A stretch of DNA of 54,618 bases from Syntrophus aciditrophicus (GTDB lineage: Bacteria > Desulfobacterota > Syntrophia > Syntrophales > UBA8958), in NCBI GenBank assembly GCA_020718905.1, contig DYRD01000006.1:1-54618 (forward strand), written 5' to 3'. The translations under genes and the position numbers were made by a program. A model generated the notes under the pieces. The model saw nothing but the letters and a program-made list of their open reading frames with translations, ran no database searches and was not told the origin of the DNA. Numbering within the stretch: position 1 is the first letter of the stretch; the number at the start of each line of letters is the position of its first letter. Positions 12,834 through 17,259 of this stretch are shown in pieces.

Positions 12834-13418
12834 TTATTTAATATCCGGTCTCTGAAAGAGCTTGAGATCGATCATCTGACAGAGAACATGCCCCAGGGTA
12901 ATGTGCACTTCCTGAATCCGGGCGGTGCTGTCGGATGCCACATTAAGTGCATAATCGGCGATGCCCGCAATATCGCCGCCATCTTTTCCCGTCAGGGCCA
13001 GGGTGACCAATCCCATCCTCTTTGCCTGTTCCAGCCCTTTGAAGACATTCTGTGATCTCCCGCTGGTGCTTATACCCCAGGCAATATCTCCCGCATGTCC
13101 GAGGGCACGAATCTGCTTGCTGAATATCTCAGAGAAATCATAATCATTGCCGATGCTCGTTATTGTAGAAGTATCCGTGCTTAAAGAAATAGCCGGCAGG
13201 GGCGGCCTCTCGATCATAAACCGGTTGACGAATTCCGCCGCGAGATGCTGGGCATCGGCGGCGCTGCCGCCGTTCCCGAAGATCAGGACCTTGTTGCCCG
13301 CCTTTAAAGCCGCAGTCATGACATTGACAACCCTGACGATCACCGGGAGATTGTCGTTTACAAAGTTTTCCTTGAGATGACTGCTCTCTTTAAAAATCTT
13401 TACGATGAGATCTTCCAT
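12834..13418 (-). CDS. gmhA: D-sedoheptulose 7-phosphate isomerase
   Basis: GNGGSAADAQH, GNDY, ISTSG, RIQEVH. Confidence 0.96.
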   Translation of the reverse strand: MEDLIVKIFKESSHLKENFVNDNLPVIVRVVNVMTAALKAGNKVLIFGNGGSAADAQHLAAEFVNRFMIERPPLPAISLSTDTSTITSIGNDYDFSEIFSKQIRALGHAGDIAWGISTSGRSQNVFKGLEQAKRMGLVTLALTGKDGGDIAGIADYALNVASDSTARIQEVHITLGHVLCQMIDLKLFQRPDIK

Positions 13419-13440
13419 TTTTCCCCCTCAAAACGGCGCT

Positions 13441-13469
13441 AATATATTTATCCCCCCTTCCGGTGTCAA
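13441..13469 (-). promoter_or_regulatory. Putative sigma70 promoter for gmhA-grpE-dnaK
   Basis: Minus strand TTGACA-N17-TATATT. Confidence 0.6.
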
Positions 13470-13561
13470 GGTCAGGAGGAGAATAAAATGGCGGGCGGTC
13501 AGGGTTTGTCCCGAAGAAAAAAGGGGAATCTCTGCTGCGGATTCTAAAGCAGATGCTATCC

Positions 13562-13646
13562 AGGCAGCGAGGAAGAAACGACGCAGGCGTGGCTTGCATA
13601 CGTCGAGGAGCCGCTGACGATGCCAACGCAGATAGTGCTTGCATTT
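13562..13646 (-). repeat. Dispersed ~85-bp intergenic repeat, copy 2
   Basis: Reverse complement resembles 9279..9365; lies just after the nrdD-like stop. Confidence 0.75.
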
Positions 13647-13656
13647 AAAATTCGCA

Positions 13657-15708
13657 TTAGGCGAAGTGTTCCTGGCGGAAACGATCCTGCAGTTCGGCAA
13701 GCTTGCCTTTATTCCAGTCCAACACGCGACTGTAATACTGGGTGATTTTGGCAATACCATCCACATTTACCGATGCACAGTGACCACATAGCGCCTTGAG
13801 CCCGCGGGTGGTCTTGCCGCAATCGAGACAGGTAGTAAAATCGGGAGAAAAGATGAGTTGGCGGCAGGTCGTTTCCCTATAGGCCCAGATAACGAATGCG
13901 GCCAACTCATCGGCAGGAGGCTTATATTCCCCTATCCATAACTGACTGGCAGCCCCGGTCTTAATCAGGGGGTGAAACCGGCCCTCCCTGCTGATCAGGT
14001 CCTGCGGTTTTAAAGGCGCATAAACAGGAATATGAGTTGAATTAGTGTAATAAAGACGTCCGTTGACGATACTTCCCCGTACATGGCGACCCGCCTGGGG
14101 GGGAAAATAGCGAAGATCGAGACGGGCAAAGCGGTGGGATGTCGTTTCGGCGTGGGGCTGATCCAGAACCATGCTGATGCCATGGCGGGCGCTGAGGTCC
14201 GCTGCCTGTTTCTCCATAAATTCTATTATCTTAAGCCCAAAATCAAATGATTCTGAAGATGCCTGCAGGGGCTTTCCCATGTGGATCTGTACCAGCTCAT
14301 TCAACCCCACCATCCCCAGCAGGTAAGATACACGATCCATGCGCAGGTAGGGCAATCCATCCAGATTCATCGCCAATGCCGACAGAGGCCCCTGGTCTCC
14401 ATAAGAAAGCAGTCTCTCCAGAAATGCCCTTTTCTTGTCATGGGCACCGGCTGCCAGGGCCATGATATCCGCGAGGCTTTTAAATAACCGCTCGGTATCC
14501 CCTTCGGCCCGGTATCCGAGACGGGGCAGATTGAGGCTGATGCTCTGGAGAGCGGCATAGCGCCCTTGCCATGGCATTTCCCTTTCATCAGGATCAAAGG
14601 GGATACCGAAGGCACAGAGGGCATCCTCTTCGCTCTTCCTATCCAGGACGAAACAGGGATTGCCCATAGCGGCAGCGGCCTCACAAACATGGCGGAGGAA
14701 GTTCTCGTGACCGGGAGTTTCAAAAAAGCGCGGCGTAAGGTGCACAATAGGCCTGGGAAAGATAAAGGGTTTGCCCGTACCGTCTCCCTTTTTAAAGACA
14801 TCGAAGAGGGCCCAGGCGAAGCGCTGCGCTTCCCCCTCATACTCCCCGCAGGTACGGCCGGTGAGTTTTCCCGCCGGACCGGTCATTGGCAGCCCCCGCA
14901 GCGGCTGGGGGACCTCCCAGAAGACGTGAATATCGGTAAACATGGCCTGCCCGCCCCGGGCCGCCGTTAATTGAGAAAACTCATAGACGAGCATCTGGGC
15001 CAATTGTCGTACTTCCCGGTCTGACATGCCCTCAAGGTAAGGGGCAAAAGACAGGTTCACAAAATTCCAACTGATGATCCCGGCAAAATATCCCTGGAGG
15101 ATGGCGCCGAAACGAACCATGTGGGCCAGCAGCACCTCCGCATGTTTGGCCGGCTTGGCAACGGTCAGGGAGCGGGGAAGATTCAGGCCGTATCTTTTCA
15201 GATACTCCAGGGATTGACAGATGGCCAAAGGTCGATCGATGTACCCCAGTCCATGGATATGGAAATCCCCCAGGATATGGGCGTCGCTTATTTCCTGGGA
15301 AAAGATGCTGTGGAGGGCATACTCCCGCTTGATCCCCTGGGCCAGCACCAGATTTGTCCCTTCGGGGCCATGGGGAACGTTGGCGTCTTCTTTATTCTGG
15401 TGGAGAATGAGGCGATCGACATCATACAGGGAAAAACCGAGGCGGGCATGCATACGCCTGGCCTTCTCCAAACCCCGCTCCACAAGCTTTGCATCTACCA
15501 GTTCCCGGACCAGGGATGTTGTCAGCACGGAAATCCCGGAAGCAAACAGGCCTTTTTCCACATCCTTGCTGATCGCCGCCGCCGTTTCGAGGTCGATACC
15601 CGTTTCACGGATCAGCGTATCCACAATCCGCTGCCGGTTCCACTGCACAACCTCCTCCCCGGAGGTCCGGACAAACAGTGTGATATCCGTTGTTTCCAGT
15701 GGGATCAT
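13657..15708 (-). CDS. nrdD: Anaerobic (class III) ribonucleoside-triphosphate reductase homolog lacking the glycyl-radical Gly
   Basis: N-terminal ATP cone, AHILGDFHIH, KPAKH, RGGQ, FIFPRP, LNLPR, YYTNSTH, CLDC..CGHC, WNKGK..E..DR; the radical motif reads KITQY instead of RxxGY. Confidence 0.9.
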   Translation of the reverse strand: MIPLETTDITLFVRTSGEEVVQWNRQRIVDTLIRETGIDLETAAAISKDVEKGLFASGISVLTTSLVRELVDAKLVERGLEKARRMHARLGFSLYDVDRLILHQNKEDANVPHGPEGTNLVLAQGIKREYALHSIFSQEISDAHILGDFHIHGLGYIDRPLAICQSLEYLKRYGLNLPRSLTVAKPAKHAEVLLAHMVRFGAILQGYFAGIISWNFVNLSFAPYLEGMSDREVRQLAQMLVYEFSQLTAARGGQAMFTDIHVFWEVPQPLRGLPMTGPAGKLTGRTCGEYEGEAQRFAWALFDVFKKGDGTGKPFIFPRPIVHLTPRFFETPGHENFLRHVCEAAAAMGNPCFVLDRKSEEDALCAFGIPFDPDEREMPWQGRYAALQSISLNLPRLGYRAEGDTERLFKSLADIMALAAGAHDKKRAFLERLLSYGDQGPLSALAMNLDGLPYLRMDRVSYLLGMVGLNELVQIHMGKPLQASSESFDFGLKIIEFMEKQAADLSARHGISMVLDQPHAETTSHRFARLDLRYFPPQAGRHVRGSIVNGRLYYTNSTHIPVYAPLKPQDLISREGRFHPLIKTGAASQLWIGEYKPPADELAAFVIWAYRETTCRQLIFSPDFTTCLDCGKTTRGLKALCGHCASVNVDGIAKITQYYSRVLDWNKGKLAELQDRFRQEHFA

Positions 15709-15786
15709 CCTTAATAACCTTTCCTCTGAAAATGCATATGCATATCTCCCTTTATCACCCTTTTGTCAAAGGGAGAATGGTGCCGG

Positions 15787-17202
15787 TTAAATATTCGTTC
15801 TCGATGTCGTCCGAGGATTATCAAGAACACTTTCCGCCGCCATGGTAACCTCGGCATCATGGTCATGGGTCATCGTAAAGACCCGGAAATGAACTATCCG
15901 GGCCGGAATAAATCGATAGATTTCCCGCAGGGGTTCCTGGGAGGTACGGCCCACAGCGGGATTAAAGATATTGACCTGCTTCTCCGTCTGCGCCATGGGA
16001 TTGATCGGCCGCGGGTCCTGGGTCGCCAGGTCAACCCGGAGGGCCAGACTCTTGAGGGATCTTGGCAGACAGCTTCTGATCTGCCTTTCGTAATCCCCGG
16101 CCTCGGAAAAACGGGTGCCCTTCTGAACCCCTTCAAGGGATATCTCCGTGGAAAAAGACATCTTCCACTTCACCTGCCGGCTGTACAGCCGCTGCCACTC
16201 CTTGCCGAGCCTTTTCCTGACCGGATCTTCAGTATGCGGCCATTGCCGGACTTCATCGAACAACCGCCATTCATCCAATTGGCCATAGGCATCCAGGTCC
16301 TCCAGGGGATTCCGTGGGAAAATGATATCCATCGTATCCCGGAAGATCTCCTGGAGATGGAGGTCCAGGGCCCGGGTGGTCCGATGGAAATAGACATTGG
16401 CATAAAGAGTCAGGCGGGCATTCAGGAAGCGGCGCAAAGCGGAAATTCCCGCCTCATGGAGGGTCAGGCAGGCATCGGTAAAAAATGAATAATACCGTAT
16501 TCTCGCAATGTCAACCATATCGAGGGATATCCCCGACATTAAAGCGTCCCGCTGCACATAGTCGAGATTGTCCACCGTGTAGATCCCGGAAAATAGTTGC
16601 CGGAGCAAGGGAAGCCACGGGGGGACCCCTTCCGCAGTATCTCCAGGCATCTTGATGAGATAGGCCACCTGGAGGGGGTCCAACAGCTCACCCTCCGTAA
16701 ACGGTCCCGAGGGGCTTCTCTTGATTTTCCTGATGATTCTGCCCAGCTTGCCGACAATGATCTGCCGCCCCAAATCCTCGTGGGTGGTTCCGTATTGATC
16801 CAGAAAATGATCGTCGAAAAAATGCCCATAGGGGCCATGGCCGACATCATGGAGCAGCCCGGCGACGCGCAGCAACTCCTCAATATATCTTGCCGAGGGA
16901 ACATCACCGCAAATTTCGCGCAGACTGGGATAAAGGGATTGGGCAAACTCTCCGGCGACATGCATGGTCCCCAGGGAATGCTGAAACCGGGTATGCTCCG
17001 CCGCCGGATAGACCCAGCGGGCGCTCTGCAACTGGTATATCCGCCGCAACCGCTGCAGCCAGGGTGAATCGATAAGATCCTTCTCCGTTTTTTCCGTCGT
17101 ATCGCCCCCGTCGGGGACGGTAAAACAGGCATACTGATGGATCGGATCGGCAATCAGCGCCTTGCCCTTGTAAATACGGGGATATGTGGTCTCGTAGCCC
17201 AT
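15787..17202 (-). CDS. HD-domain phosphohydrolase, SAMHD1/dNTP triphosphohydrolase-like
   Basis: DPIH, LQRLRRIYQL, HTRFQHSLG, LLHDVGHGPYGH, HE, VDNLDYVQRD, VYFH. Confidence 0.88.
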   Translation of the reverse strand: MGYETTYPRIYKGKALIADPIHQYACFTVPDGGDTTEKTEKDLIDSPWLQRLRRIYQLQSARWVYPAAEHTRFQHSLGTMHVAGEFAQSLYPSLREICGDVPSARYIEELLRVAGLLHDVGHGPYGHFFDDHFLDQYGTTHEDLGRQIIVGKLGRIIRKIKRSPSGPFTEGELLDPLQVAYLIKMPGDTAEGVPPWLPLLRQLFSGIYTVDNLDYVQRDALMSGISLDMVDIARIRYYSFFTDACLTLHEAGISALRRFLNARLTLYANVYFHRTTRALDLHLQEIFRDTMDIIFPRNPLEDLDAYGQLDEWRLFDEVRQWPHTEDPVRKRLGKEWQRLYSRQVKWKMSFSTEISLEGVQKGTRFSEAGDYERQIRSCLPRSLKSLALRVDLATQDPRPINPMAQTEKQVNIFNPAVGRTSQEPLREIYRFIPARIVHFRVFTMTHDHDAEVTMAAESVLDNPRTTSRTNI

Positions 17203-17259
17203 AACGTAGCTTCTATAATATTTGAGTAGAAATATCAACTTAAAAGGACCGCTTTGTCC

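Follow-up and report, generated by a model that had tools for sequence, protein, structure and literature searches.

What remains for a class III ribonucleotide reductase (RNR) to do once it can no longer carry a radical? This question is raised by a gene on contig DYRD01000006.1 of Syntrophus aciditrophicus (assembly GCA_020718905.1), a member of the Syntrophales within the Desulfobacterota (below, 'the order' and 'the phylum'), which we analysed as a window of 54,618 nucleotides. The gene encodes a homolog of the class III enzyme NrdD, here called NrdD-Q, in which glutamine occupies the position of the glycine that normally bears the radical. A preliminary description of the window proposed that coordinated loss of catalytic residues within a conserved fold points to a non-catalytic role, such as that of a regulatory heterodimer partner or of a sensor of nucleoside and deoxynucleoside triphosphates (NTPs and dNTPs), or else to new chemistry. 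Examination of homologs, clade structure, selection and codons supports the core of this proposal, and on sequence grounds it is close to certain that NrdD-Q is a selected, catalytically dead NrdD. To the more specific reading, that this NrdD descendant is a non-catalytic nucleotide binder, most likely a sensor or regulator responding to (d)NTPs and plausibly working with an HD-domain dNTP triphosphohydrolase (dNTPase) encoded directly upstream, we assign a probability of roughly 60%.

The open reading frame (ORF) is uninterrupted over 683 codons, as the preliminary description reported, and its product matches the Pfam family NRDD (PF13597) over residues 107-677 with an E value of 5.3e-109. 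Against the NCBIfam equivalog model TIGR02487 it reaches 312.7 bits, below the cut-off of 326.35, and it falls far below the cut-off of every one of seven other NCBIfam NrdD equivalogs; a DNA-binding domain is not evident in the profile search. The C-terminal motif reads GIAKITQYYSR, and alignment with NrdD of Prevotella copri (PDB 8p23) places Gln657 on the radical Gly of RITGY, in agreement with the initial assignment. Read directly from the sequence, the CAG codon is two base changes away from any GGN codon. The DNA contigs of runs X3 and X4, the latter from a separate study, cover positions 13738-13740 with no difference listed, so that the Gly which raw reads might have revealed does not appear.

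Two cysteine changes named in the preliminary description were borne out when NrdD-Q was aligned to P0121 and P0122, its closest canonical relatives. First, RPYCSGQ in those proteins corresponds to RPLAICQ in NrdD-Q, with Ala162 at the position of the Cys on the first barrel strand (beta-A), a residue that reduction requires. Second, SECCRL corresponds to ALCAFG, with Cys365 at the position of the first Cys of the finger loop and Ala366 at that of the second. According to the accessible portion of Burnim et al. (bioRxiv 2022.04.23.489257), the second Cys of this motif, which is the third residue of xCCR or MGCR, is the catalytic one. All three of the radical and redox residues are lost in NrdD-Q.

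The same pattern extends across the clade to which NrdD-Q belongs, as judged from 77 of its members and 19 canonical relatives that have RPYC, the Cys-Cys pair and Gly. The catalytic finger-loop Cys is present in only five of the 77 clade members, compared with 19 of the 19 canonical relatives; it is replaced by Ala in NrdD-Q and by Gly or a variable residue in others. The first finger-loop Cys is kept in 42 clade members, and the loop contains no Cys at all in P0009, P0013, P0015 and the protein from genome G126. The beta-A column is occupied in the clade by Ser (67), Ala (6), Gly (2) or Asn (2), compared with Cys in 18 of 19 canonical relatives, and Gln stands at column 657 in 72 of 77 members. 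In the canonical relatives, 64 alignment columns reach 90% conservation or more. The clade keeps the residue of 53 of these columns, again at 90% or more, and seven are variable, three of them being the S-C-C of the finger loop. Only two carry a different residue that is itself conserved, with Ser in place of Cys at 162 and Gln in place of Gly at 657. Since just five columns are invariant specifically in the clade (A195, G201, T248, T522 and Q657), no new catalytic constellation is apparent, and the suggestion of new chemistry finds little support in the alignment. Five of the seven features that define a functional NrdD are missing from NrdD-Q (the Gly, the catalytic Cys, the beta-A Cys, an NrdG gene beside it and a sufficient TIGR02487 score), and two are present (the NRDD family match with its fold, a 10-stranded barrel, and the structural four-Cys zinc site). 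Because five of these seven fail, NrdD-Q should not be filed as a functional NrdD.

Losses of this kind could mark a functionless gene, either a slowly decaying pseudogene or an artefact of assembly. The finger loop evolves rapidly, the reading frame is interrupted in four of 45 related loci, and the assembly itself contains at least one frameshifted gene elsewhere, all of which would fit such an explanation. The distribution of the gene speaks otherwise. A search of 5.8 billion proteins returned 120 best matches (57-91% identical to NrdD-Q), and the residue at the Gly site is Gln in 115, His in two, Leu in two, Arg in one and Gly in none, which answers the call for homologs sharing the [RK]xxQY motif. 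All 28 sampled Gln-clade proteins form one clade, with a value of 97 in the Shimodaira-Hasegawa-like approximate likelihood ratio test (SH-aLRT). In the 45 related loci, taken from species-representative genomes, the site holds Gln in 36 (CAG in 32, CAA in four) and Arg in two, with a contig end in three and the interrupted frame in the remaining four. Across a sample of 151 genomes from the order, which spans 24 families, 145 match NrdD-Q at E <= 1e-20, and about 138, judged from best E values, hold a high-identity ortholog; family f20 has a distant canonical NrdD only, or no match.

Selection leads to the same conclusion. The whole-gene ratio of nonsynonymous to synonymous substitution rates (dN/dS, NG86 method) lies between 0.078 and 0.172 in 19 of 19 pairs, and the finger-loop segment alone gives 0.09-0.69. 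NrdD-Q is under strong purifying selection outside the finger loop. The preliminary description had also portrayed the window as full of lesions, a view that does not hold for the 9.5-22.7 kb neighbourhood examined, where all eight neighbouring ORFs considered give full-length family matches. With an intact frame, orthologs throughout most of the order, 53 of 64 canonical columns kept and the Gln codon confirmed in contigs of an independent study, a lone decaying copy is hardly credible, and the selection and distribution data already contradict it. By its sequence record, NrdD-Q qualifies as a pseudoenzyme, in that essential residues are lost while purifying selection and wide vertical retention persist.

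How such a protein arose can be read from its relatives. In a phylum sample of 301 genomes, 126 have a homolog that is 49-58% identical to NrdD-Q. Twenty homologs from outside the order, representing 19 families and 53-57% identical, were retrieved, and all 20 have RPYC and RITGY; a pattern search found SECC or SQCC in 19. In every one of these 20 cases nrdG lies directly downstream, and in none is an HD gene present. Inside the order, a clear nrdG was found in none of 65 loci, and the neighbours of NrdD-Q in the window likewise include no nrdG, as first described: the HD gene lies upstream, and genes for a SIS-domain protein, grpE, dnaK and surE follow downstream. At one of the related loci (L050, 4361-4702, opposite strand), a weak radical-SAM-like match, 31% identical to NrdG over 121 aa, sits within 2.7 kb of inserted sequence that separates the HD gene from the NrdD ortholog.

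Residues were classified in 61 orthologs from 23 families of the order. Gly is replaced in 33 of them (Gln 20, Lys 5, Arg 5, Pro 1, Leu 1, His 1) and kept in 28. The full triad survives in six of these Gly-keepers, all from family f2. The remaining 22 lack the catalytic Cys (f7, genus g55 of f2, and G116, which read SECG), the whole loop (f13) or the beta-A Cys, and intermediate states of loss are visible among sister families. In a tree of 83 sequences the non-Gly proteins comprise one clade of 32 (starred; support 96), which again groups the Gln homologs, plus one long branch, and the Gly/non-Gly label needs two changes. Taken together, the canonical nrdDG pairs outside the order, the intermediates within it and the tree indicate that NrdD-Q is a vertical descendant of the phylum's ordinary nrdD, derived from an nrdDG pair. 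The radical apparatus was dismantled stepwise, the catalytic Cys apparently going before the Gly.

Two observations concern these relatives themselves. An S-E-C-G finger loop, in which the catalytic Cys has become Gly and the first Cys is kept, is conserved in sister families (L064, L065, L080, L081, L088-L091, L108, L109 and L115-L117); it accompanies Gly and RPYC in f7 and in g55 of f2, and Arg at the Gly site in f21. The first finger-loop Cys may have a role of its own. Furthermore, many of the nearest canonical relatives with Gly (P0123-P0134 and others) reach 1000-1700 aa and match in two to five separate stretches, a pattern that may reflect inteins inserted in NrdD.

Could a protein with this history nevertheless remain a radical enzyme, either holding a C-alpha radical on Gln657 or receiving a radical in some other way, and carry out ribonucleotide reduction or related chemistry? 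A precedent exists in the aminoacyl radical enzymes, homologs of the pyruvate formate-lyase (PFL) type for which the accessible part of Fu et al. (2024, PMC11528403) describes stable C-alpha radicals on Ala, Ser and Thr. As in NrdD-Q, their radical Gly is replaced, and they too come mostly from metagenome-assembled genomes. The conservation of Gln with both of its codons in use, and the failure to find any other RNR in G126, would also be in keeping with retained radical chemistry. However, as portrayed in the same part of that paper, the aminoacyl radical enzymes carry residues one base change from Gly, keep both the catalytic Cys and the activase, and form radicals. The proteins considered here belong instead to the NrdD family, carry Gln, Arg or Lys, and have lost cysteines and activase; because the aminoacyl radical enzymes retain the catalytic Cys and the activase, NrdD-Q is not one of them. 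Moreover, the near-complete disappearance of the catalytic Cys from the clade, the members without any loop Cys, the absent beta-A Cys, the acceptance of Arg, Lys, His, Leu and Pro at the Gly site in sister lineages, and the lack of an activase gene nearby in the 65 loci or above cut-off in the genomes of family f19 all argue against this possibility, which we regard as most improbable.

We take the entry IPR012833, which gathers class III RNRs, to rest on TIGR02487. If it does, the sub-cut-off score against that model may explain how the clade escaped a search of IPR012833 that found Gly only, as stated in the accessible part of Fu et al. (2024, PMC11528403). With respect to the picture given there, in which class III RNRs always keep the Gly, the clade is a counter-example, and one that reflects loss of the radical apparatus and not the adoption of a new radical residue. 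Full-text literature searches, paper supplements excluded, returned no description of a non-Gly or dead NrdD clade, and none appears in the available portions of Burnim 2022, Lundin 2010, Bimai 2024 and a 2026 review of glycyl radical enzymes.

If the protein does not reduce ribonucleotides, what it retains becomes the best guide to what it does. NrdD-Q shares its Pfam family, its fold and 53-57% identity with canonical NrdDs of the double-Cys (xCCR) type, together with the zinc ribbon, HxH, the Asn of the flap, the PAE-loop Glu, YTNS and WNKGK; it differs from them in the Gln that replaces the radical Gly, in the missing catalytic and beta-A cysteines, in the absence of an nrdG neighbour (0 of 65 loci within the order, 20 of 20 outside) and in its TIGR02487 score. 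As the preliminary description noted, the zinc site is kept, and its cysteines are found in the canonical relatives as well; the C-terminal tail (W665, N666, G668 and K669, then E672 and R676) is invariant in the 77 clade members. The accessible portion of Bimai et al. (2024, PMC11226230) reports that in the active enzyme the triphosphate is bound by HxHD and loop 577-581, that an NxN flap covers the substrate, that Tyr712 and Glu581 form a network with the substrate, and that dATP bound to the ATP cone disorders the flap and the C-terminal domain. The equivalents of these substrate-holding residues are each at least 90% conserved in the clade: H150 and H152 (the HxH), N110 (the flap Asn), E521 (in the PAE loop, after the third-last strand) and Y658, the Tyr following the former radical Gly, whose counterpart bonds the PAE-loop Glu according to the same portion. 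The YTNS motif is likewise common to NrdD-Q and canonical NrdDs.

An AlphaFold2 model built from the 77-sequence alignment has a mean predicted local distance difference test (pLDDT) of 82.1 and a predicted template modelling score of 0.80, with a confident barrel; pLDDT falls below 50 at the N-terminus, in the flap region (105-119) and in the Gln loop (655-664). The top Foldseek matches of this model are class III RNRs (Streptococcus thermophilus, P. copri, Thermotoga maritima and T4), with E values down to 1.8e-26 and template modelling scores of about 0.57-0.74 against solved NrdDs. The ATP cone was originally described as kept. A PF03477 match is indeed present and resembles that of the canonical relative P0121 (21.0 bits), and the region is helical in the model with pLDDT mostly 56-82, but the score remains under the threshold. 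The positions of these elements are collected in Table 1.

Table 1. Features at the NrdD-Q locus: name, position in the window, strand, and basis or remark
NrdD-Q, predicted catalytically dead NrdD paralog, 683 aa, intact	13657..15708	-	open frame and PF13597
Gln657 codon CAG at the glycyl-radical Gly position	13738..13740	-	alignment and codon reading
Ala162 codon at the beta-A ('bottom') Cys position of RPYC	15223..15225	-	alignment to canonical relatives
Finger loop, residues 356-376, hypervariable in the clade	14581..14643	-	Cys365-Ala366 replace the Cys-Cys pair
CxxC..CxxC zinc ribbon of the C-terminal domain (C627, C630, C641, C644)	13777..13830	-	invariant in 77/77
ATP-cone-like N-terminal domain, residues 12-81	15466..15675	-	PF03477, sub-threshold
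SAMHD1/EF1143-family HD-domain dNTP triphosphohydrolase homolog, directly upstream	15787..17202	-	PF01966, PF19276
Spacer between HD gene and NrdD-Q, 78 bp, with TTGACA and 12-bp palindrome ATGCATATGCAT	15709..15786	-	direct reading
SIS-domain gene (GmhA/DiaA family), conserved downstream neighbour	12834..13418	-	context only

Because the substrate-binding elements are kept, a nucleotide sensor is the role we favour among the three originally suggested, and the conserved residues make it the likely one. In such a mechanism, NrdD-Q would be unable to reduce ribonucleotides, and a nucleoside triphosphate would still bind in the old active site, with the flap and C-terminal domain closing over it. 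Its state would then shift with nucleotide levels, much as binding of dATP to the cone is reported to alter the active enzyme in the available part of the structural work (PMC11226230). The long polar side chains found at the former Gly position (Gln, Arg, Lys and His) could extend into the volume vacated by the thiyl loop. The output would most plausibly be dNTP homeostasis, for which the upstream SAMHD1-like dNTPase is the best candidate partner. On this reading NrdD-Q resembles NrdR in that a nucleotide-sensing module derived from RNRs is reused for regulation; unlike NrdR, a small DNA binder made of a zinc ribbon and an ATP cone, it keeps the whole 683-aa reductase body.

A different non-catalytic role, in which NrdD-Q would serve the canonical class III RNR of the same cell as a regulator or structural element (a heterodimer partner or a spare subunit), can be weighed from the other reductases of these genomes. 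There are inactive relatives of class I RNRs that have been kept for other roles, among them yeast Rnr4, which partners the active subunit, and the herpesvirus R1 homologs M45 and UL45, of which M45 acts via an added N-terminal motif. Those proteins are class I and eukaryotic or viral, unlike NrdD-Q, which is class III and bacterial, and the inactive class I subunits serve here as an analogy. NrdD enzymes are dimeric, as seen in the accessible part of the structural study (PMC11226230), and most genomes of the order hold both genes, at least two matches occurring in about 121 of 151. Family f19 departs from this, as the Gln type is the only PF13597 match in five of five genomes and NrdG2 exceeds its cut-off in none; four of the five carry a PF02867 (class I/II type) RNR.

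The genome that contains NrdD-Q (97.8% complete) has a distant canonical nrdD with SMCCRL and VVGYL, which adjoins the only NrdG2 over cut-off there, as well as a PF02867 RNR of 778 aa and NrdR. A frameshift divides this canonical gene (G000 contig C240, 13456-17126, L001) into two ORFs, one of 307 and one of 417 aa, with an intact nrdG directly downstream; the frameshift is either an assembly error or real decay. Among 12 other genomes of the family, the canonical nrdD is open (about 700-846 aa) in nine and was not found in G121, G142 and G150. The first two are the closest relatives of our genome (their NrdD-Q is 89-91% identical) and both have PF02867; G150 belongs to another genus. The closed chromosome of G007 has both the canonical NrdD and the Gln type, without PF02867. 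In G057 (contig C4), the PF02867 RNR is fragmented, with TGA stops and five separate matches. Since the f19 genomes keep the dead copy with neither a canonical NrdD nor an NrdG2 over cut-off, and G121 and G142 keep it with no canonical NrdD match, NrdD-Q depends on neither a canonical NrdD nor an activase, which argues against both a heterodimer role and radical activation. The co-resident canonical NrdD is, in addition, just about 27% identical to NrdD-Q and frameshifted in the genome at hand. We consider a partnership with the canonical enzyme very unlikely.

These genome contents also matter for annotation. Public records name the proteins of the clade 'anaerobic ribonucleoside-triphosphate reductase', and because of these names, metabolic reconstructions of Syntrophales-type syntrophs attribute to them a class III RNR, which NrdD-Q is unable to supply. 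The error affects the whole order, and in f19 the dead copy is the only NRDD gene.

The directly upstream gene is relevant to what NrdD-Q might regulate. Its ORF is listed from a TTG at 17238 (15787-17238), and ATG 17202 is the likely start because the upstream extension has early stops, lying 3-6 codons into it in five orthologs, and because most matches begin near residue 15-20. The protein resembles solved dNTPases, with E values of 7.8e-27 for PDB 2hek, 6.9e-22 for EF1143 of Enterococcus (2o6i) and about 2e-15 for SAMHD1; its metal ligands H75, H118, D119 and D214 are invariant in 41 orthologs, and it falls far below the cut-offs of the NCBIfam dGTPase models. By homology we predict a dNTPase of the SAMHD1/EF1143 type. 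An HD gene is present in 40 of the 45 related loci, and in 37 its match ends no more than 189 bp upstream of the NrdD match; in the order sample, 127 of 151 genomes have it. A joint function of NrdD-Q and the HD dNTPase is therefore plausible. Such a partnership could not be all that NrdD-Q does, given the lineages in which the dead NrdD persists with no HD gene, and conversely G066 has an HD gene and no NrdD ortholog. The six full-triad f2 orthologs are never directly beside the HD gene, which is 5-6 kb away in two of their genomes and on another contig or not found in the rest.

Several observations weigh against the reading of NrdD-Q as a dead NrdD that senses nucleotides and works with the HD protein. 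The sensor role itself is inferred from conserved residues, and one of the binding motifs has changed, the Asp of HxHD being Gly in 58 of 77 clade members including NrdD-Q, which may weaken triphosphate or metal binding. The ATP cone scores 19.1 bits against a PF03477 cut-off of 25.8 (E 0.002), and the placement of Gln657 in the barrel is unsupported by the model because of the low pLDDT of its loop. Families f2, f5, f7 and f13 keep Gly with part of the cysteines, so part of the wider orthologous group may be catalytic. The interrupted frames at L034, L047, L048 and L054 are either assembly errors or real decay. In G126 (f19), no RNR was found besides the Gln-type NrdD; we take this as a probable assembly gap because the genome (completeness 100, contamination 6) is in 140 contigs and its genus-mate G072 has PF02867, and its Gln-type protein has Ser at the beta-A site. 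The HD gene was not found in f21 (0 of 7), f3, f10, f23 and two f16 genomes that hold the NrdD ortholog, and it is absent from the 6 kb upstream at L031 and L034, where unrelated genes lie in the case of L031. Finally, the synteny is confined to a single order, which leaves a functional link and mere inheritance of gene order indistinguishable.

The lineages without an HD gene bring forward a role for NrdD-Q apart from that protein, either as a nucleotide-responsive regulator of another process, such as replication initiation or the downstream SIS-grpE-dnaK genes, or as a non-radical nucleotide enzyme. NrdD persists without the HD gene not only in f21 but also in G055, G070 and at L031, and its position upstream of SIS-grpE-dnaK is kept in most loci. 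The TTGACA in the spacer means that NrdD-Q could have its own promoter, and the spacer, with its palindrome, may be a candidate promoter with an operator. A stand-alone function would also fit a reduced second NrdD-like family, described below, whose gene has nrdR on one side and a uridine-kinase gene on the other in the single locus available. In contrast, HD adjacency is the commonest arrangement (37 of 45 loci), the scarcity of clade-specific invariant columns leaves no conserved constellation for a non-radical enzyme, and a link to replication through a DiaA-like neighbour is weak because the SIS protein is below every NCBIfam cut-off. We judge an independent role of this kind to be possible yet rather unlikely.

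Of the 150 nearest cluster representatives, 31 belong to the second NrdD-like family (P0162, P0172, P0176, P0185 and others). Its members are about 730-790 aa long, with an extra full-scoring ATP cone, no beta-A Cys, a deleted finger loop and degraded PAE and YTNS motifs, and they lack the whole C-terminal domain with the zinc and Gly sites. A metagenome scan with P0162 gave three loci, of which one was usable (L119, 2565-4892); there the gene sits between nrdR and a uridine-kinase-family gene.

The preferred interpretation of NrdD-Q as a sensor has a more ambitious form, in which dead class III RNRs would be widespread, so far unrecognised nucleotide sensors of bacteria and NrdD-Q would gate the neighbouring SAMHD1-like dNTPase as a dNTP homeostat. 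Dead NrdDs with Gln, Arg or Lys would read NTPs and dNTPs through the old active, specificity and cone sites, and the second NrdD-like family, with its extra ATP cone and no C-terminal domain, would be a further version. We offer this extension tentatively and think it doubtful. If it were true, a reductase body kept for its nucleotide sites beside a dNTP-degrading enzyme would constitute a new element in the control of bacterial dNTP pools. A complex prediction that combined the HD protein (471 aa) with residues 614-683 of NrdD-Q alone, without controls, gave scores of 0.00 and 0.00 and speaks neither for nor against a complex. A scan for NrdR boxes upstream of the HD gene and NrdD-Q, made with a 16-bp consensus, left its controls (the regions of the canonical nrdD and the PF02867 RNR) unmatched, the contig ending about 90 bp upstream of the canonical nrdD, so that the scan carries no weight.

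On the other side of NrdD-Q, the SIS gene follows the NrdD paralog in most loci. Its product is below the cut-off of every NCBIfam match, including those for the phosphoheptose isomerase GmhA and the DnaA-associating protein DiaA; a DiaA-like role, if true, would tie the cluster to replication. An 84-aa ORF at 13390-13644 was considered as a gene and rejected, as it has no family match and just 22-44-aa matches in the closest loci. Lastly, metatranscriptome contigs from libraries X15 and X16 lie on the NrdD-Q ORF and none on the HD ORF, a kind of evidence that cannot show absence. Those on NrdD-Q match it at 97-100% identity, a weak hint that the gene is transcribed.

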